Assembly (NCBI GenBank): GCA_963764715.1
Contig: CAVXTP010000017.1
Location: 65,524 to 129,523 of the forward strand
Source: an uncultured Acidobacteriota bacterium
GTDB lineage: Bacteria > Acidobacteriota > Thermoanaerobaculia > UBA5066 > Gp7-AA6
Direction of reading: 5' to 3'
DNA length: 64,000 nucleotides
Part shown: piece by piece, positions 1-64,000 of the stretch
Layout: each line of letters starts with the position of its first letter
Position numbering within the stretch: the first letter of the stretch is position 1
The notes under the pieces: generated by a model
Database searches by the model: none
Told to the model about the DNA's origin: nothing
What the model saw: only the letters and a program-made list of their open reading frames with translations
Translations under genes and position numbers: made by a program

Positions 1-556
1 GGAGGACCGGGCGCTGGGCCCGCAGGTACGCGGCCCAGTTGACGATGAAGAGGATGTGCCGCGCCTCTTCCTGCATGATCGTCTCGAAGATCGCGATGAA
101 GGCCTTGGGGAAGATCTCCGCGCTCGTCCCGAGCCGGAAGAGGCCGAAGGCGAAAAACGAGTCCAAGCACTCCCCGTAGCCGGTCCGCAGGAACGCCAGG
201 GTCGGGTCCTTGGGGACCTCGGGCGGCGGGAACGGGCGGACATCGATCCCGTAATGGCGGGTCAGGCGCTGCAGGACCTCGGCGTGACGGGCCTCCTCGT
301 AGCCCTGGAGGCTGATCGCCTCGGCCAGGAGGGGGTCCTTCTCGGTGTCACCCAGAGACTGCACTTTGACGGCCGTGGCGGCCTCGGTCCGGGTGGCCTC
401 GTTCCAGATCGGCATGGATTTGAGCCGGGCCAGTTGCTCGGCGTCCATGTCCGGCCACCGGATCTCCTCCGGTTTGAAGGGATCGTGGGTGTCGATGAAC
501 ATCCGACAGAGCAGCTCTTTGTGCTCCGGGCTCCCGATCTTGAGCGTATTTGCCAT
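1..556 (-). CDS. ferritin-like diiron-carboxylate protein (N-terminal ~185 codons; the gene runs off the left edge)
   Basis: My own translation of the minus strand from the ATG (cat at 554-556) gives MANTLKIGSPEHKELLCRMFIDTHDPFKPEEIRW... It has two EEARH motifs (YEEARHAEV, QEEARHILF), as in diiron ferritin-like oxygenases, and GC-rich third positions. It is missing from the ORF track only because no stop lies inside the window. Confidence 0.6.
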   Translation of the reverse strand, partial: MANTLKIGSPEHKELLCRMFIDTHDPFKPEEIRWPDMDAEQLARLKSMPIWNEATRTEAATAVKVQSLGDTEKDPLLAEAISLQGYEEARHAEVLQRLTRHYGIDVRPFPPPEVPKDPTLAFLRTGYGECLDSFFAFGLFRLGTSAEIFPKAFIAIFETIMQEEARHILFIVNWAAYLRAQRPVL

Positions 557-26481: not shown

Positions 26482-28641
26482 TCAAAACGACAGACCGAAC
26501 GTCTTGACCATGAACACGGCCATCTGGCCGCGGGTGTTGTTGTTGCCCGGGCAGTAGTTGCCTCCCCCGCAGCCTCCGGTGATGTTCTCGGCCGCGAGGC
26601 GCTCGATCCAGTCCGCGAAGGTCGACGGGCAGGGAACGTCGCCGAAGACCCCCACGCAGGCCGGCGGCACGTAGCTCGATCCGTGCTCTCCCTTGAGGAG
26701 GAACACCGCCATCTGGTCGCGCCGCACCGGGTTCTGCGGGCAGAACTTCCCGCCGCCGCAGCCGCCGGTGATCCCTTCGGCGGACATGGCCTCGATCCAC
26801 GCCGCGAAACTGGACGGGCAGGGCACGTCGGAGAACGTGCCCGCACACGGCGGCGGCGTGTAGCACAGCCCGTGCTTGGCCTTCAGCAGGAAGACCGCTA
26901 TCTGCTGGCGCAGCGTCGGGTTGTCGACGCCATAAAGCCCGCCGCCGATGCCGACCGTGATCGCGTTCGAGACGAGGCCGGTGACGTAGAAGTAGAACTG
27001 GTTGCCGGAATCCACGTCGAGGAAGTTCGAGACCCAGCCCTTCACGAGGGTCCCCGACGTTCCATTGGTGTTCGTGACGACGAGGTCGTTGACGGAACCG
27101 GGCGTCAACGCCGGAGTCCCGCCGGTGATCTGGTTGAAGCCGTTGACCGAGATGTCCGTCGCCGGCTGGCCGCCGACCGTCACCGTCGCGCCGGCCTCGA
27201 AATCGGTGCCGGCGATCGTCATCCCGTTTCCGGCCGCGGCGGGGCCGGCGGCCGGCGTCACCGAGAAGGGCAGGCGCTGCGAGAACTCCGAGGTCCTTCC
27301 GCCGGGCGTCGTCGCCGTGACCGAGATCCGCGCGCCCGCCGCCGTCGCCACGGGCAGCGAGACGTCGAAGGACCCGACGCCCGCGCCGTCCGTCGTGACC
27401 TGGCTCGAGCCGAGATACGTCTCCCCTTCGAGGAACTCCCGCGGGAAGTTCGAGCACGCCGCGTTCGAGTAGAAGTCGAGGTCGAACACCGTGGACGGCG
27501 TCGAGTGCAGCAGGCCCTGAACGTGCGTCGGGTTGCCGGTCGTCACCGACTTCAGGACCGGAAAGTTCTGGATGCCGTCCGCCTCGGCCAGATCGTTCGG
27601 CGTTGCCCCGTCGTTGCCCACGTCGATCCCGAGGCCCGCGTTGTCGTGGATGGAGTTGCCGCGGATCGTCACGCCGTCCACGACGTTCACGAAGATTCCG
27701 TTCCCGGAGCTGTACGCGATGATGTTGCCCTGGCCGGTCCCGATCCCCCCGATGGTGACATCGTCGTTCATCACGGTGATCGCGCCCGGCCCCGTGCCGA
27801 GCGGCAGAGTTCCCGTCACGTCCGTGCCGAGCTTGTTGCCCTGGATCACGGTTCCGAGCCCCGCGCCGTCGATCAGGCTGAATTCGGCGGCGGCCATGAC
27901 GTTGTCGCGGATCGTGACGCTCGGCGACGCACCGGCGACGGCGGTGCCGGGACCGATGGCCGAGGTTCCCGCCGCGTCGGTTCCGAAGAGGTTGTTCCGC
28001 ACCAGCAGGCCGGGCTGCCCTTCACACTCGATGTGATAGATCGTCGCGGCGGCGAAGAGATTCCGATCGGCCGGGTTCGGGCCGCCGACGACCGTCCCGG
28101 ACCCCACCACGTCGACGACCGAGACGGCGGTCGGATCGGCCGTGTGCCCGTCCGGCGCGACACCGAAGAAGCAGCCCGTGATGTGGGTGTCCGTTCCGCC
28201 CAGGATGTCGATGGCCGGATGCCAGTCCTTCCGGAAGACGAGGCCCCGCACGGTCGCCGGGCCCGTCACCGTGAAACAGAGCTGGTTCGAGAGGTTGACC
28301 GCCGAGAGGACGATCTTCAGGACCGCGTTCGTGCCCTGCGCGAGCGTGTTGACCGAGGCCCCCGGCTGGGTGTAGCCGTCGATCGTGACGGGGTCGGTGA
28401 CGTTGACCAAAGGATTGAGCGGCGCGATCGTGCAGACGCCGCTGCCGTCGCAGCCCGAATCGGACCCCGGAATGTTGAACGCGATCGTGTCGGCGCCGGC
28501 GTTGTTGTCGGCGTCGATGATCGCCTGCCGGAACGAGCCCGCGCCCGAGTCGTTGGTGTTGGTCACCGTGAACGTCGCCGCCGAGAGATTCGAGATCAGG
28601 AGAACGCCCGAGGCGAGGCCGACGCCGAGTCGATGTCTCAT
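26482..28641 (-). CDS. secreted CSLREA-motif / parallel beta-helix / IPT-TIG protein with three C-terminal Cys-rich SLH-like repeats (paralog B)
   Basis: The ATG at 28641 lies inside ORF 26482..29040. It has the same architecture as paralog A (ATFTVTNTNDSGAGSFRQAIIDADNNAGADTIAFNI ... TRGQMAVFMVKTF). The C-terminal thirds are about 80% identical by eye. Confidence 0.85.
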   Translation of the reverse strand: MRHRLGVGLASGVLLISNLSAATFTVTNTNDSGAGSFRQAIIDADNNAGADTIAFNIPGSDSGCDGSGVCTIAPLNPLVNVTDPVTIDGYTQPGASVNTLAQGTNAVLKIVLSAVNLSNQLCFTVTGPATVRGLVFRKDWHPAIDILGGTDTHITGCFFGVAPDGHTADPTAVSVVDVVGSGTVVGGPNPADRNLFAAATIYHIECEGQPGLLVRNNLFGTDAAGTSAIGPGTAVAGASPSVTIRDNVMAAAEFSLIDGAGLGTVIQGNKLGTDVTGTLPLGTGPGAITVMNDDVTIGGIGTGQGNIIAYSSGNGIFVNVVDGVTIRGNSIHDNAGLGIDVGNDGATPNDLAEADGIQNFPVLKSVTTGNPTHVQGLLHSTPSTVFDLDFYSNAACSNFPREFLEGETYLGSSQVTTDGAGVGSFDVSLPVATAAGARISVTATTPGGRTSEFSQRLPFSVTPAAGPAAAGNGMTIAGTDFEAGATVTVGGQPATDISVNGFNQITGGTPALTPGSVNDLVVTNTNGTSGTLVKGWVSNFLDVDSGNQFYFYVTGLVSNAITVGIGGGLYGVDNPTLRQQIAVFLLKAKHGLCYTPPPCAGTFSDVPCPSSFAAWIEAMSAEGITGGCGGGKFCPQNPVRRDQMAVFLLKGEHGSSYVPPACVGVFGDVPCPSTFADWIERLAAENITGGCGGGNYCPGNNNTRGQMAVFMVKTFGLSF

Positions 28642-54222: not shown

Positions 54223-55271
54223 GCGCCCGGGCGAAGCTCGAGATTCCGGCCGCGGGCCTCGTCGAGCGGGGCCTCGTCCCGGACGCCATCCTGCGCCTGG
54301 CGATCCGGCGCCTCCTCGCCGCGCGACTCCGCGAGGAAGACGCCGGAGACCCCGAGGCCGCGCGCCGCCGCACCGACGCGTTCGCCGCGAGGATGCGGGA
54401 GAGCCCGATCGCCATCGCGACTTCCGACGCCAACGCCCAGCACTACGAGGTCCCGCCGCGGCTCTTCGAGCTCGTCCTCGGGAAACGCATGAAGTACAGC
54501 TGCGGTCTCTACGAGAGCACGACGGTGACGCTCGACGAGGCCGAGGAGGCGATGCTCGCCCTGACGGGCGCCCGGGCGCAGCTCCAGGACGGCCAGGAGG
54601 TCCTCGAGCTCGGCTGCGGCTGGGGCTCGCTCACCCTCTGGATGGCGGAGCGGTTTCCGCGTTCCAGGATCACGGCCGTCTCCAACTCCCGCGACCAGCG
54701 CGGATTCATCGAGATGCGCGCCCGGGAGCGCGGCCTCTCGAACGTCACGATCGCGACGGCGGACATGAACGTGTTCGACCCCGGCCGGACGTTCGATCGG
54801 ATCGTGTCCGTCGAAATGTTCGAGCACATGCGCAACTGGCCGAAGCTGCTCGAGCGGATCGCCTTCTGGATGCGCCCCGACGCGCGTCTCTTCCTGCACG
54901 TCTTCTCCCACCGGGCGGTCGCCTACCCCTTCGACGTGCGGGACGCCTCCGACTGGATGGCGCGCGAATTCTTCACCGGGGGGCTCATGCCCTCCGACGA
55001 CCTGCTCGACCGGTTCCCGGACCACGTCCGGATCGAGGCGCGCTGGCAGGTCGACGGCACCCACTACCAGCGAACCGCCGAGGACTGGCTCGCGAACCTC
55101 GACGCCCGGCGCGACGAGGCCCTCGCGCTCTTCGCCGCGACGTACGGAGAGACCGAAGCGCGCGCGCGGCTCGCGGCCTGGCGCCTCTTCTTCCTCGCCT
55201 GCGCCGAGTGCTGGGGCTACCGCGGCGGAACGGAGTGGATCGTCTCGCACTACCGGCTGCGCCGGTCCTGA
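54219..55271 (+). CDS. second CFA-synthase/mycolic-acid-methyltransferase family SAM methyltransferase
   Basis: The ATG at 54219 overlaps the upstream stop (ATGA). Motifs are AQHYEVPPRLFELVLGKRMKYSCGLY, the SAM site VLELGCGWGSLTLWMA, and SVEMFEHM. Confidence 0.88.
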   Translation: MSARAKLEIPAAGLVERGLVPDAILRLAIRRLLAARLREEDAGDPEAARRRTDAFAARMRESPIAIATSDANAQHYEVPPRLFELVLGKRMKYSCGLYESTTVTLDEAEEAMLALTGARAQLQDGQEVLELGCGWGSLTLWMAERFPRSRITAVSNSRDQRGFIEMRARERGLSNVTIATADMNVFDPGRTFDRIVSVEMFEHMRNWPKLLERIAFWMRPDARLFLHVFSHRAVAYPFDVRDASDWMAREFFTGGLMPSDDLLDRFPDHVRIEARWQVDGTHYQRTAEDWLANLDARRDEALALFAATYGETEARARLAAWRLFFLACAECWGYRGGTEWIVSHYRLRRS

Positions 55272-55288
55272 GGTAGCCTGCCCGGAGA

Positions 55289-56206
55289 GTGAACCTCCCC
55301 ACGCCGCTCGAGGCGGCGCCGGCGGAGCTCGCCGGCGGCCGGCCCCTGGACTTGAAGCGCGAGGACGCGCACGAGCTCGGCGCGTTCAAGTGGCGCGGAG
55401 CGCTGCCCACGGTCGAGGCGTACAAGCGGCAGGGCGCCTCGGCCGTCGTCACCGCCTCGACCGGGAACCACGGGGCCGCGGTCGCCTGGGCCTCGCGGCG
55501 GCTGGGCCTGCGCGCGATGGTCTACGCGCCCGCGGGCGCTTCGCTCGCGAAGCTCGCGCTGATCGACTCGCTCGGCGCCGAGATCCGGCTCATCGGCACC
55601 GACCTCGACTTCGCCAAGGACGAGGGCAAGCGCTTCGCGGCCGAAGCCCGGCTTCCCTTCTTCGAGGACGGCGTCGAGCCCACGCAGTACCAGGGATACG
55701 GGGCGATCGCCGACGAGATCCTCGACCAGGGCACAGAGCCGCCGGCCGCCGTCGTCGTGCCGGTCGGCAACGGCGCGCTGATCGGCGGGATCGGCCGGAC
55801 CCTGAAGCGCCGCTCCCCCGCGACGTCCCTCGTCGGCGTCGCCGCGAAGGAGGCGCCGGTCATGGCGCTGTCCCACCGGGCGGGCCGCGCCGTCGAGAGC
55901 GACCGCATGGGGACCTTCGCCGACGGCCTCGCGGTCCGCGTCGCGATCCCCGAGGCGGTCGAGCTCGTCAACGGGGTCGTCGACCGGATGCTCCTGGTGT
56001 CCGAGCGGTCCATGGCGGAAGCGATCGGCGCGTTTCACCGTGCCGGAATTCGCGCCGAGGGCGCCGCCGCCGCGGGCCTCGCCGCGCTGCCTCAGCTTCC
56101 GCTTCCGGTCGACGTGGGACGGATCGTCCTCGTCGTCACCGGCCGCAACATCGACGAGGCTCTCCACCGCCGCGCCGTCGAGGACCCCGGCTCCTTCCCG
56201 GACTGA
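55289..56206 (+). CDS. fold-type-II PLP enzyme (threonine/serine dehydratase-like)
   Basis: A GTG start. The PLP lysine is in GAFKWRGAL. Other motifs are ASTGNHGAAVA and VVVPVGNGALIGG. Confidence 0.8.
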   Translation: MNLPTPLEAAPAELAGGRPLDLKREDAHELGAFKWRGALPTVEAYKRQGASAVVTASTGNHGAAVAWASRRLGLRAMVYAPAGASLAKLALIDSLGAEIRLIGTDLDFAKDEGKRFAAEARLPFFEDGVEPTQYQGYGAIADEILDQGTEPPAAVVVPVGNGALIGGIGRTLKRRSPATSLVGVAAKEAPVMALSHRAGRAVESDRMGTFADGLAVRVAIPEAVELVNGVVDRMLLVSERSMAEAIGAFHRAGIRAEGAAAAGLAALPQLPLPVDVGRIVLVVTGRNIDEALHRRAVEDPGSFPD

Positions 56207-56223
56207 GCCCGTCTTCGGCCCCG

Positions 56224-56258
56224 GCTTACTGCTTACCGCTTACCGCTTACCGCTTACT
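56224..56258. repeat. heptanucleotide tandem repeat (GCTTACY)x5
   Basis: GCTTACT GCTTACC GCTTACC GCTTACC GCTTACT. The amidase stop codon (tta at 56247-56249, which is TAA on the minus strand) lies inside the array. Confidence 0.9.
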
Positions 56259-57878
56259 GACCCTCAAATCCACCGTCGGCAGATACCGCGGCGGCCGCCG
56301 CACCTTCGTCGCCTGCTCGAACGCGTAGGCGATCTTCAGGAGCGTCGGCTCGCTGCCGGCCCGGCCGAAGAACGACAGCCCGACCGGCAGCCCGAAGTGC
56401 CAGCCCGCGGGCACGGTGATGTCGGGATAGCCGGCGATCGCCGGGATCGACGAGCTCCCGTCGGCGCCGTAGCCGCCGTTGACGAGGTCGATCAGCGACG
56501 CGGGGCCCGAGGTCGGCGCGACGAGGCAGTCGAGACGATGTTCGTCCATGGTCTTGTCGATGCCCTCGACGCGCGACAGCCGGAGGTCCTTGGCGAGCGC
56601 GTCGACGTAGGCCTTGTCCGTCAGCGGGCCCTTGGCTTCCGCCTTCTCGAAGATCTCCTGCCCGAAGTACGGCATCTCGCTCTCGCGGTTCTTCGCGTTG
56701 AAGAGGATCAGGTCCGAGAGCGTCCGGTACCGCGTCCGGGAGCCGAGCCCCGCGAGATGGGCGTTGAGGTCCGCCTTGAACTCGTAAAGGAGCACTTCGA
56801 ATTCGGACTCGCCGATCTCGCCCGCCGATGCGATGTCGGCCGGGTCCACGATGACGGCGCCCTCCCGCCGCATGACCGCGAGGGCATCCTCGGCGACGGC
56901 GTCGGCCGCCGGGCTCTGCCCGTAGAGCTTTTTGCGCGGCACGCCGATGCGGGCGCCGGCGAGGCCGCGGGGATCGAGGAAGGTCGCGTAGTCGATCGGC
57001 GCCCTCCCGGCGAGGTCGCGTGTCGCCGGGTCCGCCGGATCGAAGCCGCACATCGCGGTCAGCAGGATCGCGGCGTCGGCGACGGTGCGGGTCATCGGGC
57101 CGGCGGTGTCCTGGCTGTGCGCGATGGGGATGATCCCGCTCCGCGACACGAGGCCGAGCGTCGGTTTCAGCCCGACGAGGCCGCAGTTGTTGGACGGCGA
57201 GACGATCGAGCCGTCGGTCTCCGTCCCGATCGTGATCGCGCAGAGGCTCGCCGCCGCCGCGGCCCCCGAGCCCGAGCTCGAGCCCGACGGATCGCGGTCG
57301 AGGGCGTACGGGTTGCGGCACTGCCCGCCGCGGCCGCTCCAGCCGCTCTGGGAGTGCGTCGAGCGGAAGTTGGCCCACTCCGAGAGGTTCGTCTTGCCGA
57401 GGATCACCGCGCCCGCGTCGCGCAGCCGCTGGACGATGTGGGCGTCCTTCTCGGGAACCGCTCCGACGAGGGCGAGCGAGCCGGCCGTCGTCTGCATGCG
57501 GTCGGCGGTCCCGATGTTGTCCTTGATCAGCACGGGGATCCCGTGGAGGGGCCCGCGGACCTTGCCGGCCTTGCGCTCGGCGTCGAGGCGGTCGGCGATC
57601 GCCAGGGCGTCGGGGTTCACCTCGAGGACCGCCCGCAGCGTCGGGCCCTTCCGGTCGATCGCCTCGATGCGCGCGATGTACTTCTCGGCGAGCGTGCGGG
57701 CGGAGTCCGCGCCCGAGGCCAGCCGCTTCTGGAGATCGGCGACCGTCAGCTCGTCGAGCTCGCCCGCCGGCGGCGGCGGAGGGTCGGCCGGCGGCGGCCC
57801 CGCCGCAGCGTTGCGGGAGACCGCCGCGGCGGCGCCTCCCAGGACTCCGCTCTTCAACAGGGACCGGCGATCGATCAT
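56247..57878 (-). CDS. amidase-signature (Ser-cisSer-Lys) amidase with twin-arginine signal peptide
   Basis: The ATG at 57878 is preceded by GGAGGA. It has a Tat-type signal (MIDRRSLLKSGVLGGAAAAV) and the amidase signature GGSSSGSGAAAAASL...GTETDGSIVSPS. Confidence 0.92.
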   Translation of the reverse strand: MIDRRSLLKSGVLGGAAAAVSRNAAAGPPPADPPPPPAGELDELTVADLQKRLASGADSARTLAEKYIARIEAIDRKGPTLRAVLEVNPDALAIADRLDAERKAGKVRGPLHGIPVLIKDNIGTADRMQTTAGSLALVGAVPEKDAHIVQRLRDAGAVILGKTNLSEWANFRSTHSQSGWSGRGGQCRNPYALDRDPSGSSSGSGAAAAASLCAITIGTETDGSIVSPSNNCGLVGLKPTLGLVSRSGIIPIAHSQDTAGPMTRTVADAAILLTAMCGFDPADPATRDLAGRAPIDYATFLDPRGLAGARIGVPRKKLYGQSPAADAVAEDALAVMRREGAVIVDPADIASAGEIGESEFEVLLYEFKADLNAHLAGLGSRTRYRTLSDLILFNAKNRESEMPYFGQEIFEKAEAKGPLTDKAYVDALAKDLRLSRVEGIDKTMDEHRLDCLVAPTSGPASLIDLVNGGYGADGSSSIPAIAGYPDITVPAGWHFGLPVGLSFFGRAGSEPTLLKIAYAFEQATKVRRPPRYLPTVDLRVSKR

Positions 57879-57933
57879 CGCGTCCTCCGCTTTCGTGCGG
57901 CCGAGAGATATCACGGAGCGGCGCGGGCCCGCG

Positions 57934-59340
57934 TCAGAAGAGGTGCGCGATCGAGTTGGCGTAGTAGCGCAGCAGCGGCACCTCGTCCGGGCGGGCGCGG
58001 AAGAGGCCGCCGGCCTCCTCGACGAGGCGGCGCAGCGTCAGCATGCGGAGGCCCACCGTGATCGCGTAGTCCTGGTCGCCCCGCGGGACGTAGACGTGGG
58101 CCCCCCGCCCCTCGAGCTCCCGGATCAGCCGCAGCACCTCGCCCTTGAGCTCGAGCTCGCTCCAGCTCCGCTCCGGCGCCCGCACGAAGACCGTCGCGAC
58201 GAGCGAGACCGGGACGACCGGGATGACCCGCGCGATCTCCCCCATCAGCTCCCGCGCCAGGTCCGACAGGCGCCGGGAGCGCTCCTCTCCCGCGAGGGAG
58301 CGAAAGTCGAACGCGTGGCGCTGGAGGTGGCGCCGGAGCGAAACGGGCGAGCCGAAGTTCACGCACGCGTAGCCGAACCGGTGCCAGCGATTGAGGGCCC
58401 TCAGCCAGACGTTGCGGCCGATGAACCGCGCCGTCGTCCCCGCCGCGGCCGGCGCGCTCCGGGGAGAGGCCTCCGGGTCGAGCTCGCGCAGGAAGCTGCG
58501 GTCCTCGAACGTCCGGTCGTAGTTGATGCCGACCGGGATGAAGACGATGTCGCGCTCCCCCGCCGGGTCGAACGACCGGACCATGTAGTCGAGGATGCCG
58601 AGCCTGGGCGGCCGCAGCTTCCCGTCGCGCGAGAGGCCGCCCTCCGGGAAGACCGCCTGCGTCACGCCCGCCGCGGTGGCCATCCCGACGTAACGCTCGA
58701 GGACCTTGCGGTAAAGGGGGTCCTTCGAGTTGCGCCGCACGAAGTACGCGCCCATCGAGCGGATCAGCGTCTGCAGCGGCCAGATGCGCGCCCACTCGCC
58801 GACGGCGTAGGAGAGCGCGGCCTTCTCCGCCGCGAGATACGAGACGAGGACGTAGTCCATGTTGCTGCGGTGGTTGATGAGGAAGACGACCGTCGCCTTC
58901 GGAGGCATCGACGCGAGGCCTTCCTCGTCCTCGTAGCCGAGGCGCACCCGGTAGAGCGAGCGCGCCAGGTTGCGGGCGAGCCAGTAGCCGATGCGGAAGT
59001 AGGCGTACGCGTTGAAGGCCGGGACGATCTCGCGCGCGTAGCGGCCGACGCGCTGCATGACGACCTCGCGCGGCATCGCCTTCTCCCTCGCCTCGGCCTC
59101 CGCGGCCTGCTGCACCTGGGGGTCGTAGAGCAGGCGGTCGATCAGGACCTCGCGCTTCGTCAGCTCGAAGTGCGCGATGCGGATCTTCAGGCGGGTGTTG
59201 ATCTCCTCGAGGACCCGGTTGACCCGGCGCCGGAGAAACCACCGGACGCTCGGGATGAGCAGCCGGTCGAGGGCGGCCCACGCCGCGAGGATCGCGAGCA
59301 GGATGGCGAGCCAGGTCGGAAGCTCGACGGTGCCGCGCAT
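57934..59340 (-). CDS. PlsB-like glycerol-3-phosphate / lysophospholipid acyltransferase
   Basis: The ATG at 59340 (MRGTVELPTWLAILLAILAAW) lies inside ORF 57934..59475. It has the acyltransferase H-x4-D motif (NHRSNMD) and the blocks FVRRNS and VFPEGGLSRDG. Confidence 0.85.
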   Translation of the reverse strand: MRGTVELPTWLAILLAILAAWAALDRLLIPSVRWFLRRRVNRVLEEINTRLKIRIAHFELTKREVLIDRLLYDPQVQQAAEAEAREKAMPREVVMQRVGRYAREIVPAFNAYAYFRIGYWLARNLARSLYRVRLGYEDEEGLASMPPKATVVFLINHRSNMDYVLVSYLAAEKAALSYAVGEWARIWPLQTLIRSMGAYFVRRNSKDPLYRKVLERYVGMATAAGVTQAVFPEGGLSRDGKLRPPRLGILDYMVRSFDPAGERDIVFIPVGINYDRTFEDRSFLRELDPEASPRSAPAAAGTTARFIGRNVWLRALNRWHRFGYACVNFGSPVSLRRHLQRHAFDFRSLAGEERSRRLSDLARELMGEIARVIPVVPVSLVATVFVRAPERSWSELELKGEVLRLIRELEGRGAHVYVPRGDQDYAITVGLRMLTLRRLVEEAGGLFRARPDEVPLLRYYANSIAHLF

Positions 59341-59381
59341 GGGAAGTGCTTGCCGAGCATAGGACAGTCGTCGGCCAGTGA

Positions 59382-59436
59382 GCAGGAGGCAGGAGGCAGG
59401 CAGTAAGCAGTAAGCAGTAAGCAGTAAGCAGTAAGC
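59382..59436. repeat. heptanucleotide tandem repeats: (GCAGGAG)x2-3 followed by (AGTAAGC)x5; the latter is the reverse complement of the 56224-56258 array
   Basis: AGTAAGC occurs five times at 59402-59436. Its reverse complement, GCTTACT x5, matches the left array at 32/35 positions. It lies 62 nt upstream of the acyltransferase start. Confidence 0.9.
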
Positions 59437-59443
59437 AGGGATA

Positions 59444-59473
59444 CGAAAAGGGGCGGCCGTGCGGGGCCGCCCC
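59444..59473 (-). terminator. intrinsic terminator after the 59495..60055 gene
   Basis: The minus strand reads GGGGCGGCC-CCGCAC-GGCCGCCCC-TTTTCG, starting 22 nt after the stop. Confidence 0.75.
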
Positions 59474-59494
59474 ACCTGGTCCGACCGGCCTGAC

Positions 59495-60055
59495 CTAGCG
59501 CGGCCAGAGCCAGCCGAAGACGCCGGCCGTCAGGAGCCCGTACACGATCCCGTCGATCACTTCCTTGATCGTCGAGGACCAGGACCGGCCCCACCAGATC
59601 GCGTTCGGCACGATCCCGGCGGCGTAGGCCAGCGCGGCGGCCCCGCCCGCGGTGTGGAAGACCGTGCGGTAGGAGGAGCCCACCGGCAGGACGCGGCCGG
59701 CGACGCAGGCGACCACCGTCGAGACCACCAGCAAATAGACGAACCAGAGGCCGAGCTGCTTGCCCATCCCCATCGGTCCGGGCGGCCAGACGACCATCGT
59801 GCCCATCGGGCCTTCTTCCATCTTCTTCTTCGTCTCGGGGCTCTTGTCGCGCGGGTCGCAGAACGGGAAGCGGTACTGCCCGCGCCCCACGCCCGCGCGG
59901 CGCATGGCCTCGAGCACTCCCGCCTCGCCGGGAAGCTGGGCCCAGTCCTTCTTGTGGTGCGGCAGGAACATCCAGACGATGGAGCTCGCGATGTAGACGA
60001 GGACCGCGGAGCCCAGGATGGGAAGCCAGAGTGAGCCGAGGGCGACCATACCCAC
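59495..60055 (-). CDS. hypothetical 4-TM membrane protein
   Basis: A 186-aa ORF with hydrophobic helices flanking a charged loop (DPRDKSPETKKKMEEGP). Third codon positions are GC-rich. Confidence 0.6.
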   Translation of the reverse strand: MGMVALGSLWLPILGSAVLVYIASSIVWMFLPHHKKDWAQLPGEAGVLEAMRRAGVGRGQYRFPFCDPRDKSPETKKKMEEGPMGTMVVWPPGPMGMGKQLGLWFVYLLVVSTVVACVAGRVLPVGSSYRTVFHTAGGAAALAYAAGIVPNAIWWGRSWSSTIKEVIDGIVYGLLTAGVFGWLWPR

Positions 60056-60114
60056 CTCCTTGTGCGGTTGGAGCGAAGTGGCGGAATTATCCTCCCGAAT
60101 CCGCGCGGCGTAGG

Positions 60115-60570
60115 ATGCGCCCCATGGAATGGCGCCGCGGCGGTTATGCGATCTCGACCGACCCGCAACGGCTGGACCGGGCCGCCATTCACGGCTTCCT
60201 GTCCGGTTCCTACTGGGCGAAGGGCATCCCGCGCGAGGTCGTCGAGCGCTCGATCGAGGGGGCCCTCTGCTTCGGCCTCTACGAGGGAGAACCCCAGGTC
60301 GGTTTCGCCCGGGTGATCACCGACCGTGCGACCTTCGCCTACCTCGCCGACGTCTTCGTCGTCGAATCGCACCGCGGCCGGGGGCTCGCCGCCTGGCTCA
60401 TGGAGACCGTCATGGGGCACCCCGAGCTCCAGGGGCTCCGCCGCTGGATCCTCATGACCCGGGACGCGCACGGGCTCTACCGGAAGTTCGGCTTCCGCGA
60501 GATCGCCGATTCCGGCCGCTGCATGGAGATCGTGGACCGCGAGGTGTACACGCGGGCTCCGCGACGCTAG
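60115..60570 (+). CDS. GNAT-family N-acetyltransferase
   Basis: The ATG at 60115 lies inside ORF 60031..60570. The acetyl-CoA motif is VVESHRGRGLAAWLMETVM, and the C-terminus contains HGLYRKFGF. Confidence 0.85.
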   Translation: MRPMEWRRGGYAISTDPQRLDRAAIHGFLSGSYWAKGIPREVVERSIEGALCFGLYEGEPQVGFARVITDRATFAYLADVFVVESHRGRGLAAWLMETVMGHPELQGLRRWILMTRDAHGLYRKFGFREIADSGRCMEIVDREVYTRAPRR

Positions 60571-60695
60571 AATCGCCCCGCTGCCTATGATCGTCCCTCG
60601 GTAAAAAGCGCGGTTCCCCGGACGGCCCGGCCGTCCGATCACGAAGCCACGAACGCGGGGCGCCCGCGCACGGGCGCTCGCCGAGAGGAGATCCC

Positions 60696-61472
60696 TTGAA
60701 CGCACCCACGGACTGGTGGAAGACCTTCTTCGACGGCCTCGCCGTCGGCTTCTGGCGGGCCGCCGTCCCGCCGGAAGCGACCCGGGCCGACGCCGACTTT
60801 CTCTGGAAGCACCTGAATCTCGCGCCGGGCGCCCGCGTCCTCGACGTGCCCTGCGGCGCCGGGCGGCTGACGCTGCCGCTCGCCGAACGCGGCTGCGCGA
60901 TGTCGGGCGTCGACATCTCGACCGAGTCCGTCGAGGCCGCGGCGGCCGCCGCCGCCGAGCAGGGGCTCGCCGTCGACTTCCGGTGCGCCGACATGCGCGA
61001 CCTGCCCGCGTCGTCCGGGTTCGACGCGGCGTTCTGCTTCGGCAACAGCTTCGGGTACCTCGACGACGCCGGCAACGAGGCCTTCGTCGCGGCCGCCGCG
61101 CAGGCGCTCTCGCCCGGCGGACGCCTGGCCATCGACTTCGGGCAGACGGCCGAGGGCGTCTTTCCGCGGCTCGAGCCCCGGCTCGAGGGCGAGCTCCACG
61201 GATTCCGGTTCGTGGAAGAGACGCGCTTCGACCCGGTCACCTCGCGCATCGAGAACGTCTTCGAGTTCTCGAAGGACGGCCGGTCCGAGCGCAAGCTCGC
61301 TTCGCAGCGCGTCTACCTGGCGGGCGACCTCGTCCGCATGCTCGGCCGCGCGGGCCTTCGGGTCCTCGGCCTCTACGGATCGCCGGAGGAGGAGCCCTTC
61401 GCCCTCAGCTCGCAGCGCCTCCTGATCGTGGCGGAGAAGCCGCGAGCTTCCGGACGAGGGACACGAGGCTGA
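60696..61472 (+). CDS. class-I SAM-dependent methyltransferase
   Basis: A TTG start. The SAM motif is RVLDVPCGAGRLTLPLAERG, with an acidic loop at GVDIS and motif II at DAAFCFGNSFGYL. Confidence 0.85.
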   Translation: MNAPTDWWKTFFDGLAVGFWRAAVPPEATRADADFLWKHLNLAPGARVLDVPCGAGRLTLPLAERGCAMSGVDISTESVEAAAAAAAEQGLAVDFRCADMRDLPASSGFDAAFCFGNSFGYLDDAGNEAFVAAAAQALSPGGRLAIDFGQTAEGVFPRLEPRLEGELHGFRFVEETRFDPVTSRIENVFEFSKDGRSERKLASQRVYLAGDLVRMLGRAGLRVLGLYGSPEEEPFALSSQRLLIVAEKPRASGRGTRG

Positions 61473-61668
61473 TGACCGACCAGGAGCCCTCGAGCACGAT
61501 CAGGCCGGCGTTCTTCGCTTCGACGGCGAACCACGTCAGGATGACGGCCCCCAGGAGATTGAGAACGAGGTAGGCGCGGTCCTCGCCGCCGAGCTTCCCG
61601 GCCTGCTGGGCGGCGAAGGCGGCGAGGATCATCGCCGCGCCGAGAAGCGAGACGAGCTGGGCGATCAC
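61405..61668 (-). CDS. small membrane protein (about 3 TM)
   Basis: An 87-aa ORF, MIAQLVSLLGAAMILAAFAAQQ...LNLLGAVILTWFAV...GLIVLEGSWSVISLVSL. It overlaps the convergent methyltransferase gene by 68 nt. Confidence 0.5.
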   Translation of the reverse strand: MIAQLVSLLGAAMILAAFAAQQAGKLGGEDRAYLVLNLLGAVILTWFAVEAKNAGLIVLEGSWSVISLVSLVRKLAASPPRSGGAAS

Positions 61669-61756
61669 GACGCCGCCCGTTCGGCCTCGCCCGGCGTGGC
61701 CCGGGTCCGCATTGCGACTTCGAGGCGTCGTCCGCGATGGGTTCGTTCGGTCACGA

Positions 61757-62341
61757 TCAGGTCTCCTCTTCCGAAACCGGTCCTTCGGGCGCTTCGGCGA
61801 CGGGGTAGCAGGCGAGGACGAGACGGTAGGGGCGGCCCTTCCCCGGGCGGCCGTTCTCGCGCAGATTCGGCATCGAGTGCCGGGCGATGACCTCGACGAT
61901 CGCCGCCCGCATCGCCTCGGCGAACCGGGTCCGCTGTTCCGGAGTCTCGAACCGGAACTGCGACTTCACGGACAGGGTCGCCAGGCGCTTGCCCTCGGCG
62001 GCGGCTTCCCGAGCGGCGCGACCGACGTCCGACCGGACCTGGTCGGCGAGGGCGAGGAGGTAGTCGGAGGAGGCCGTGTCGGCGATCTGCCGCCAGTCCG
62101 CCGCGAGGGGCCCGAGAAGGTCGGGCGAGAGCGTGTAAGAACGGGCCGTGGCCACATAGCGCTGCTCGATCAGGTTTCGCCGCCGGCGGCGGCCGGCCGG
62201 GCGCAGAAGCCCGGCCCTCTCGAGGGCCCGGACGTGGTAGTTGACCCGCTGCCTCGGGAGCCCGAGTCGGCGCGCCAGCTCGGTCGAGGAGGCAGGCTCC
62301 CGGGCGAGGGCCAGCAGGCGCGAGCGCAGCGGGTGGAGCAT
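61757..62341 (-). CDS. ArsR-family winged-helix transcriptional regulator with C-terminal extension
   Basis: The HTH is LHPLRSRLLALAREPASSTELARRLGLPRQRVNYHVRALERAGLL. The start is uncertain: ATG at 62341, GTG at 62368/62404/62410, or the track's TTG at 62434. The last would lie inside the predicted promoter. Confidence 0.75.
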   Translation of the reverse strand: MLHPLRSRLLALAREPASSTELARRLGLPRQRVNYHVRALERAGLLRPAGRRRRRNLIEQRYVATARSYTLSPDLLGPLAADWRQIADTASSDYLLALADQVRSDVGRAAREAAAEGKRLATLSVKSQFRFETPEQRTRFAEAMRAAIVEVIARHSMPNLRENGRPGKGRPYRLVLACYPVAEAPEGPVSEEET

Positions 62342-62417
62342 CGCGCTCGCCCGCCGCGCGCTTTGCACCGCTTCGAGTCCGATGGCCCCGGGAGTTGGCT
62401 GCACCTCCACAGACAGT

Positions 62418-62447
62418 ATTATCTGTACAGACAAATCTACTTGTCAA
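62418..62447 (-). promoter_or_regulatory. sigma-70-type promoter (TTGACA-N18-GATAAT) with an embedded palindrome TCTGTACAGA, in an AT-rich island
   Basis: The minus strand reads TTGACA (62447-62442), an 18-nt spacer, then GATAAT (62423-62418). The 10-bp perfect palindrome at 62422-62431 overlaps the -10 element and the spacer. GGAGG follows about 10 nt downstream. Confidence 0.5.
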
Positions 62448-62587
62448 TACGGCGGTCCTGCTCCCATTCGGGCCGGCGAGCGTATTTGGAGGGTGAACAC
62501 TTCTCCCGTCTTCCCCGGATCCCGTCGGTACAATCCGTCGGTGGTGCCCTCTTTCCTCCTCGTCCGCGCTTTCAGGGTCGCCTGACA

Positions 62588-64000
62588 ATGCCGAAGCTCG
62601 GGCTGACGGGAGGCGGATTCTCCTCCCGCTCGATGCGCGCGGAGCGCCGCGGCCGCGCCGGCTCCGACCGGCCGGACGAAGCCGGCAGGCCGAAAAAGAA
62701 GCTGCCGGTAAAGGTCATCCTCCGGGACGCGTCCGAGCTCATCGCGGCACGCAAGGGCCGGCTCGCCCTCGGCTTCGGCCTTCTCCTCGTCAGCCGGCTC
62801 TGCGGCCTGGTGCTGCCCGGGACGACCAAGATCCTCCTGGACGACGTGATCGGGAAGGGGCGCCGCGACCTCCTCGTGACGATCGTCCTGGTTTCGGGGG
62901 CTGCAACCCTCGTCCAGGCGATCACCGGTTTCGCCCTCTCCCAGGTCCTCGGAAAGGCGGCCCAGCGCTCGATCACCGACATGCGCCGGTCGGTGCAGCG
63001 CCACGTGGGCCGTCTGAAGGTGGCCTTCTTCGACCAGACGAAGACGGGAATCCTCCTCTCCCGGGTCATGACCGACGCCGAAGGGGTCCGGAACCTCGTC
63101 GGCACCGGGCTCGTCGAGCTCGCCGGGGGGCTCGTCACCGCCCTCTTCGCCCTCGGAATCCTCTTCTATTTCAGCGCCAAGCTGACGCTCATCGCCCTCG
63201 CGGTCCTGTCCCTCTTCGGCCTCGTCCTGCTCTTCGCGTTCAAGACCCTCCGGCCGCTCTTCCGCGAGCGCTCGAAGATCAACGCCGAGGTCTCGGGACG
63301 CCTGACGGAGTCCTTCTCGGGGATCCGCGTGGTCAAGGCCTACCGGGCCGAGCGCCGGGAGGCCCTGGTCTTCACCCGGGGGGTCCACCGGCTCTTCAGC
63401 AACGTGGCGAAGACGATGACGGGCTTTTCCGCCGTGGCGGCCTTCTCGACGCTGCTGCTCGGCGTCGTGGGCGTCTCGATCATGTGGGTCGGCGCCCATG
63501 AGATCGAGGCCGGCCGCATGACGGTCGGCTCGTTCGTCTCGTTCACGCTGTACCTGGGCCTCCTCGTCGGGCCGGTGATCCAGATCGTCTCGATCGGCAG
63601 CCAGATCACCGAGGCCTTCGCCGGCCTCGAGCGGATCCGGGAGCTGCGGGACGAGCTCGCCGAGGACGCCGGCGACCGCGAGCGCGAGCCGCTCCCGCCG
63701 CTCGAAGGGAGAGTCGAGTTCCGGGACGTCTCCTTCTCCTACGAGGAGAACGTGCCGGTCCTGAACGACGTCTCGTTCGTCGCCTCGCCGGGGACCGTCA
63801 CGGCCCTCGTCGGCCCGTCGGGCTCGGGCAAGAGCACGATCATCGGCCTCGTCGCGGCCTTCCACCGGCCCACGGCGGGAACGATCTTCGTCGACGGCCG
63901 CGACCTCTCGAAGGTCCGCCTCTCCGACTACCGCGGCCAGATCGGGGTCGTCTTCCAGGACAACTTCCTCTTCGACGGCAGCGTTTACGAGAACATCGCC
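62588..64000 (+). CDS. ABC exporter, fused permease/ATPase (MsbA/ABCB-like); 3' end beyond the window
   Basis: My own translation from the ATG at 62588 gives MPKLGLTGGGFSSRS... It has six TM helices of the ABC_membrane type and the motif FFDQTKTGILLSRVMTDAEGVRN. The Walker A is GPSGSGKST at about 63810-63836. It is not in the ORF track because no stop lies in the window. Confidence 0.92.
   Translation, partial: MPKLGLTGGGFSSRSMRAERRGRAGSDRPDEAGRPKKKLPVKVILRDASELIAARKGRLALGFGLLLVSRLCGLVLPGTTKILLDDVIGKGRRDLLVTIVLVSGAATLVQAITGFALSQVLGKAAQRSITDMRRSVQRHVGRLKVAFFDQTKTGILLSRVMTDAEGVRNLVGTGLVELAGGLVTALFALGILFYFSAKLTLIALAVLSLFGLVLLFAFKTLRPLFRERSKINAEVSGRLTESFSGIRVVKAYRAERREALVFTRGVHRLFSNVAKTMTGFSAVAAFSTLLLGVVGVSIMWVGAHEIEAGRMTVGSFVSFTLYLGLLVGPVIQIVSIGSQITEAFAGLERIRELRDELAEDAGDREREPLPPLEGRVEFRDVSFSYEENVPVLNDVSFVASPGTVTALVGPSGSGKSTIIGLVAAFHRPTAGTIFVDGRDLSKVRLSDYRGQIGVVFQDNFLFDGSVYENIA

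Follow-up and report, generated by a model that had tools for sequence, protein, structure and literature searches.

Heptanucleotide arrays flanking an acyltransferase–amidase gene pair of a Thermoanaerobaculia bacterium as probable members of a dispersed intergenic microsatellite family

Introduction

What does it mean when the same short tandem repeat stands on both sides of two bacterial genes, in opposite orientation and with the same number of copies? This question is raised by a 64,000-nucleotide stretch of contig CAVXTP010000017.1 (hereafter the window), whose host is a Thermoanaerobaculia (Acidobacteriota) bacterium. Five copies of the heptamer GCTTACY overlap the end of an amidase gene (array C), and the reverse complement, (AGTAAGC)x5, lies upstream of the neighbouring acyltransferase gene (array B). 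A preliminary description of this DNA offered three explanations: control of promoter spacing through slippage, an inverted repeat that allows inversion or excision of the enclosed cassette, and a dispersed microsatellite family. We favour the last. Most likely, arrays B and C belong independently of each other to a family of intergenic heptanucleotide microsatellites (unit TGCTTAC, or GCTTACY) that is young and confined to one genus-level clade of Thermoanaerobaculia, a reading to which we give a probability of about 0.8.

Results

Arrays B and C of the window

Both five-copy arrays are real. Tandem Repeats Finder (TRF) reported period 7 for each, with 4.9 and 5.6 copies and 96–100% matches, and it found no further heptamer array of more than 2.7 copies in the window. 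GCTTACY has 10 matches in the window against 2.95 expected, all ten inside arrays B and C, and the two-unit pattern has 8 matches against 0.01 expected, a level reached in 0 of 100 shuffled sequences. The arrays are therefore beyond chance. They are reverse complements of each other at 32 of 35 positions, as had been described; when the CCC/GGG flanks are included the inverted repeat is 40 nucleotides (nt) long and 90% complementary, and 3141 nt lie between its arms. The contrast in base composition also holds, since the unit has 43–57% G+C and the window 70%.

The same sites in related genomes

Syntenic loci were collected through homologues of the acyltransferase and comprise, besides the window, the loci L001, L002 and L124 to L129. 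L001 and L124 share 97.9% DNA identity. Their identity to the window is ~89% each, compared with 87.5% for L126 and 82–85% for L002 and L125. Site B is bounded by conserved sequence, a hairpin with TTTTCG at one edge and GCGACTGTCCTATGCTC followed by the ATG at the other, and the zone between them is hypervariable (Table 1). The array is absent from this site in L002, L125, L127, L128 and L129, most of which also lack the terminator. Site B differs between L001 and L124 despite their 97.9% identity. At sites B and C alike, position is fixed but copy number and sequence vary among the window, L001, L124 and L126. Because the orthologous spacers of relatives at or below ~85% identity have no arrays, the heptamer arrays are, on this comparison, young and restricted to one genus-level clade.

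Identity to L001 is itself uneven along the window: it is 93.4% in the block with the amidase and the convergent gene downstream of it (55230–57916) and 88.7% in the block from the acyltransferase to the ABC gene (57931–63999). This contrast could stem from interspecies recombination or from stronger constraint.

Further arrays of the same unit

Dispersal of the unit is seen most directly in one relative, represented by L001 and L324 on a single 492-kb contig, which has TGCTTAC arrays at four spacers (sites A to D). Four arrays thus occur in the 43 kb sampled from this contig, and two in the 64-kb window. Site A is ~5 kb from site B and, extrapolated from the gene coordinates of L001, ~0.6 kb past the right end of the window. 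Site D, like site A seen only in relatives, is ~46 kb from sites A to C and ~1.3 kb past the left end. The L324 region was chosen for its dxs gene without regard to repeats and contained one array in its 22 kb. This array supplies the end of a gene: the cytochrome c gene at site D has lost its own stop and runs for 18 codons through degenerate G+C-rich heptamers to the TAA of the array. Its orthologue in L323 has a normal stop codon and is followed by a spacer without an array. Each of the four sites is next to the 3' end of a gene, and at C and D the stop codon lies inside the array. The sense strand reads GCTTAC at site B and GTAAGC at site D, and array orientation is therefore not tied to transcription.

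Arrays with CCC next to TGCTTAC units were also found on two unlinked contigs, L123 from a JGI metagenome and L143, an IMG/VR phage contig. These contigs, the four spacers of the relative and the variation of copy number at fixed sites support the suggestion of a dispersed microsatellite family. In L123 the array is preceded by CCGTATCCC (282–290), and a metagenome scan for the junction TATCCCTGCTTACTGCTTAC matched one contig. The gene beside the L123 array (1–260, minus strand) resembles, by eye, a four-helix-bundle ('23S rRNA intervening sequence') protein. In L143 (3497–3555) an 11-bp hairpin (CAGGGCCGGCC...GGCCGGCCCTG) leads directly into (GCTTACC)x3, between scaffold-like and capsid-like genes.

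Some arrays share more than the unit. The junction TTTT(TT)CGTATCCC followed by TGCTTAC is common to sites A and B (window 59437–59449; L001 4704–4717 and 9887–9900; compare L123 282–290), and the hairpins at these two sites differ. The shared junction may stem from a small repeated module or from gene conversion among adjacent arrays. A single mobile module made of hairpin, TTTTCGTATCCC and array was considered and rejected, since the hairpins of A and B differ and C and D are without the flank. A CCTGCCTCCTGCC stretch, similar to the degenerate units that continue array B, comes after the arrays at site D of L324 and in L123.

Surroundings of arrays B and C

Array B occupies the spacer ahead of the acyltransferase gene, past the terminator of the membrane-protein gene upstream (Table 1). 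The terminator named in the preliminary description was recovered as a 9-bp all-GC hairpin with a T-tail, and so was the adjoining GCAGGAG repeat, which consists of degenerate heptamers in phase with the array (TRF, GCAGGAG x2.7). Array B and these units form a compound microsatellite. The array does lie upstream of the acyltransferase start codon (ATG at 59340), at a distance of 61 nt rather than the 62 nt first given. It was also said to sit exactly where the promoter must be. It is indeed in the upstream spacer of the acyltransferase gene, but the conserved box CCTATGCTC places the candidate promoter elsewhere, since 40 nt separate the array from the TATGCT motif of the box downstream, and a further 15 nt separate this motif from the ATG. 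CCTATGCTC is kept wherever relatives have an intergenic spacer, also in the array-less L002, L125 and L127, and besides the terminator it is the only conserved element in a spacer whose remainder is unconserved. From this conservation TATGCT is the putative -10 box of the acyltransferase promoter; a sigma-70 consensus scan of positions 55900–59800 called no promoter, the TATGCT box included.

Array C sits between the convergent genes for the amidase and for a pyridoxal-phosphate (PLP)-dependent enzyme (PALP), and the PALP stop codon is 17 nt ahead of it. The amidase stop codon TAA (56247–56249, minus strand) does lie inside the array, and on the amidase strand the unit gives TAA in all three frames, as had been noted. 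Array C encodes the last three amidase codons (SKR) together with this stop. Conservation of the amidase ends at ...DL, and the tails vary by genome (RVSKR*, KIGKQ*, AVTSPRS*, TP*).

The heptamer in other genomes

Among the matches listed in a scan of genome contigs, (GCTTACN)3 occurs in many phyla. Viral contigs contain 30 stretches of (GCTTACN)3; two control heptamers have 43 and at least 120 stretches there. The idea of a specially widespread heptamer was rejected, because in viral contigs the controls are as frequent or more so. For 84 (GCTTACN)n arrays both flanking genes could be called; these arrays come from other genomes and the gene calls around them are rough. The flanking genes are in tandem at 57, convergent at 25 and divergent at 2 of the 84, compared with 17.7% divergent pairs in the background (binomial P of about 1e-5, calculated by hand). 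Arrays between tandem genes show no strand preference (29 vs 28).

A general rule of a terminator hairpin followed by a GCTTAC-oriented array was rejected over 115–148 arrays. Terminator-like sites were counted 9 vs 3, and folding energies did not differ between the upstream and downstream sides (Wilcoxon p=0.90). In many phyla (L003–L159), (GCTTACN)n arrays occur as inverted pairs with gaps of only 24–225 nt; these close pairs read GTAAGC...GCTTAC in 13 of 13 loci, never the reverse, and the pair in L005 lies between convergent genes. In the window the arrangement is opposite to that of the 13 close pairs, and the arrays are 3.1 kb apart.

Table 1. Arrays, neighbouring features and genes. Positions are those of the window unless another locus is named.
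Feature	Positions	Strand	Remarks
Array C	56224–56258	+	GCTTACT GCTTACC GCTTACC GCTTACC GCTTACT; last letters of the units T, C, C, C, T
Array B	59402–59436	-	(GCTTACT)x5 on minus, equal to (AGTAAGC)x5 on plus
Degenerate G+C-rich units	59381–59401	-	GCCTGCC TCCTGCC TCCTGCT, in heptamer phase; continue array B
Flank TTTTCGTATCCCT	59437–59449	-	terminator T-tail plus CGTATCCC; joins terminator to array B
Intrinsic terminator of membrane-protein gene	59450–59473	-	9 G-C pairs, 6-nt loop, then TTTT
TATGCT within conserved box CCTATGCTC	59356–59361	-	putative -10 of acyltransferase promoter
Membrane-protein gene	59495–60055	-	without Pfam family; array B comes after its terminator
Acyltransferase gene, 468 aa	57934–59340	-	PF01553 Acyltransferase, PF19277 GPAT_C
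Amidase gene, 543 aa	56247–57878	-	PF01425
PLP-dependent enzyme (PALP) gene	55289–56206	+	PF00291; convergent with amidase
Site A, L001 and L124			5 perfect units directly after Bax1-I terminator; next gene a convergent ABC-transporter
Site B, window			(TGCTTAC)5 plus degenerate G+C-rich units
Site B, L124			(TGCTTAC)3 CGCTCTAC TGCTTAC (3+1 units)
Site B, L001			(TGCTTAC)2 TGCCTTAC TGC(TTATCTCTCTG)2TAC (TGCTTAC)2, i.e. 2+1+(TTATCTCTCTG)x2+2
Site B, L126			TGCTTGC TGCTTAC only; two-unit proto-array
Site C (amidase/PALP spacer)			5 units in window; 2 in L001 and L124; none in L125 and L002
Site D, L324	8102–8128		4 units between cytochrome c and LPG-synthase genes
Close inverted pair, L005	2019–2102		
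Close inverted pair, L007	6153–6256		
Close inverted pair, L025	336–496		
Close inverted pair, L031	5016–5102		

Other observations in the window

The N-terminus of the amidase (57840–57878, minus strand; MIDRRSLLKSG / MIDRRSLLKSGVLGGAAAA) resembles a twin-arginine export signal, which suggests that the enzyme may be periplasmic. TRF also reported a tandem duplication at 26548–26922 (period 189 nt, 2.0 copies, 74% matches, score 408).

Discussion

Origin and effects of the arrays

We propose that arrays of this family would arise in spacers beside gene 3' ends and terminators, and that they would lengthen, shorten and degenerate by replication slippage, as the pattern of variation suggests. 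In the window, array C would have formed in the spacer of two convergent genes and array B in the next spacer but one, so that their opposite orientation and equal copy number would be coincidental. Their effects are probably incidental as well: array C provides the amidase with a stop codon and a non-conserved tail of three residues, and array B moves a terminator and the promoter that follows it further apart. On this reading neither array is the edge of a mobile or invertible unit.

Several observations weigh against this reading. Any count of arrays per genome has to be extrapolated from ~110 kb of clade DNA, and sites A, B and C are clustered within ~9 kb. The 12-nt flank (TTTTCGTATCCC) common to A and B goes beyond what slippage alone explains. 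Arrays of five units recur, at site A in two genomes and at B and C in the window, which could hint at a preferred length. Finally, the loci named 'contig_NNNN' may be long-read assemblies, as we assume from their names, and small errors in repeat length are possible in them; the differences seen in these loci are far larger than such errors.

Alternative explanations

The mirrored layout suggests that a repeat of 35–40 bp might allow inversion, or recombinational loss, of the 3.1-kb acyltransferase–amidase segment. The 40-nt, 90% inverted repeat with its arms 3141 nt apart is a point in its favour, and such a length is in principle enough for rare RecA-dependent exchange. However, the segment has the same orientation in the window, in L001 and L124 and in the array-less L002 and L125 to L128, and no recombinase, integrase or transposase Pfam family was found among the genes of the window or the genes called within ±10 kb in L001 and L124. 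There is no direct duplication outside the arms either, the outer flanks TCGGCCCC and AGGGATAC not being direct repeats. Of the features of an inverton, the locus thus has the flanking inverted repeats, but neither an adjacent recombinase nor a second orientation in the genomes compared; those of a composite transposon or miniature inverted-repeat transposable element (MITE), target-site duplication and transposase, are absent. In L001 and L124 the arms consist of just 2 and 2–3 units, and inversion would part the genes from their promoter and strip the amidase of its stop codon. Moreover, all relatives have the enclosed genes in syntenic chromosomal positions. A further gene lies between acyltransferase and amidase in L002 (YfhO-like) and in L125 to L128 (minus-strand, no Pfam family called). 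The spacer between the two genes measures 285 nt in L001 (11408–11692) and 55 nt in the window (57879–57933), and within the L001 spacer is a remnant of the deleted gene, with an 83% match to the minus-strand gene coming after the acyltransferase in L126. The enclosure of exactly two genes is therefore a recent deletion product, and we consider an invertible or excisable cassette extremely improbable. Could array B, as AT-richer DNA immediately ahead of the core promoter, instead tune the acyltransferase promoter, be it as an UP-like element, a spacer to the terminator or a row of -35-like boxes, with expression changing stepwise through slippage? It lies 40–75 nt upstream of the conserved TATGCT box, the window, L001, L124 and L126 all have a TGCTYRC unit 16–17 nt ahead of this box, and site B varies between 98%-identical genomes. 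Repeat-driven intergenic phase variation is also established in other bacteria (PMC12721329). Against this, the perfect array of the window is outside the -35/-10 interval, and changes in unit number therefore leave the core promoter spacing unaltered there; the spacing rheostat of the preliminary description is not supported. TGCTYRC matches a -35 hexamer poorly (2–3 of 6), no sigma-70-like site was called, the same TATGCT box is kept in array-less relatives, and in L128 and L129 the acyltransferase gene begins only 32 nt after the upstream gene. Among the four sites, A and C are convergent, promoter-less spacers, for which reason an amplified -35 box was discarded as a general account of the arrays, and arrays across bacteria avoid the divergent, promoter-only spacers. 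Repeats of phase-variable promoters lie in the -35/-10 gap or the 5' coding region; with the promoter assigned as above array B is in neither, and array C is located at the very 3' end of the amidase gene. Tuning of the promoter by array B is thus quite unlikely, and a weaker upstream influence may exist.

Other explanations place the function at the level of RNA. The arrays could serve at 3' ends as a multivalent, unstructured platform for an RNA-binding protein, or B and C of a read-through transcript could pair over 35 bp as an RNase III target or an end-to-end clamp on a bicistronic mRNA. At the RNA level, on the minus (mRNA-sense) strand, G.U pairs replace the three mismatches and pairing extends to 35/35 positions; each array is single-stranded when folded alone, and the CCC/GGG-flanked ends of B and C in L001 can still pair over ~17 bp. 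An RNA-binding-protein role was proposed, not shown, for TAACTGA heptamers (PMC4679880). If transcripts read through the terminator, pairing of B with C (35 bp including the 3 G.U) could tie the fate of the acyltransferase–amidase transcript to that read-through. However, array B is probably outside the acyltransferase mRNA, because a strong terminator precedes it and the putative -10 box comes only after it. The three variant units of C are most simply explained by one substitution spread by slippage, and the G.U argument therefore rests on a single event. Neither copy number nor sequence of the arrays is conserved, close relatives have the same genes without arrays, and Rfam 15 gave no match at E<=1 on either strand of 55000–61000. 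A functional RNA element is consequently hardly to be expected here. A related possibility is that the arrays are selected 3'-end elements instead of neutral slippage products. Their position would fit, next to gene 3' ends and hardly ever in divergent spacers, both in the clade and across phyla; so may the TAA in all three frames on one strand, and the order GTAAGC...GCTTAC in 13 of 13 close pairs, by which transcripts from either side would reach all-frame stops before the hairpin. We nevertheless see selection for such a role as improbable and regard a neutral microsatellite family as the better description.

Comparison with known repeats

Heterocystous cyanobacteria have heptanucleotide units known as short tandemly repeated repetitive (STRR) sequences. 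Those of Calothrix PCC 7601, cited in PMC4692102, are amplified in tandem at many intergenic sites and resemble the present arrays in being lineage-specific and without an established function. They differ in unit and phylum, and their copy numbers per genome are documented. A close match is with the heptameric intergenic repeats of Xanthomonas (GGGAATC) and Nostoc PCC 7120 (GGGGAYT), which number ~185 per genome and usually have ~4 units (Rehm et al., 2015; PMC4692102). They are dispersed, lie near or over stop codons and are under-represented between divergent open reading frames (ORFs); inverted pairs are frequent, and array length changes from one related species to another (PMC4692102). 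The same paper cites an earlier finding of an excess of heptameric repeats in bacterial genomes, for which polymerase slippage may be responsible. The TGCTTAC arrays likewise consist of a few head-to-tail 7-nt units, seen at four spacers of one relative, near stop codons and rarely between divergent ORFs; plus and minus arrays pair as inverted repeats, and related species have them at the same positions with differing lengths. Unlike the Xanthomonas and Nostoc units, TGCTTAC is not G-rich and allows no G-quadruplex; the host belongs to the Acidobacteriota, and the pair in the window is 3.1 kb apart rather than close and hairpin-forming.

Marine Beggiatoaceae have TAACTGA direct repeats of 2–6 copies at ~170 intergenic sites, with a stop codon inside, and these also occur in distant phyla (MacGregor, 2015; PMC4679880). 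They share with our arrays the intergenic heptamer direct repeats containing a stop codon. Most of them, however, are a few nucleotides upstream of start codons, and a role in translation was proposed (PMC4679880), whereas TGCTTAC arrays adjoin gene 3' ends and terminators. Heptameric intergenic repeats with the properties described here are thus already known from Xanthomonas, Nostoc and Beggiatoaceae.

Phase-variable contingency loci of Haemophilus and Neisseria (for example PMC12721329) also have a slippage-prone repeat near a promoter whose length varies between close strains. In contrast to these, array B is outside both the -35/-10 interval and the 5' coding region, array C alters only a non-conserved tail, and no on/off consequence can be derived. 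Inverted repeats also bracket a DNA segment in invertons and composite transposons; the present locus differs by having no recombinase or transposase, no target-site duplication, a single orientation and arms that are length-variable microsatellites.

Implications

For biology at large this finding has little significance. A known but functionally unexplained class of dispersed heptameric repeats gains an example from Thermoanaerobaculia with a unit that is not G-rich. Nearby mirrored arrays of this kind should not be taken for ends of mobile elements or for invertible switches where neither a recombinase nor orientation variants are found. The arrays can also cause artefacts at gene ends, in the form of stop codons supplied by the repeat and short C-terminal tails. 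Finally, since they are hypervariable between near-identical genomes, they are possible strain markers.

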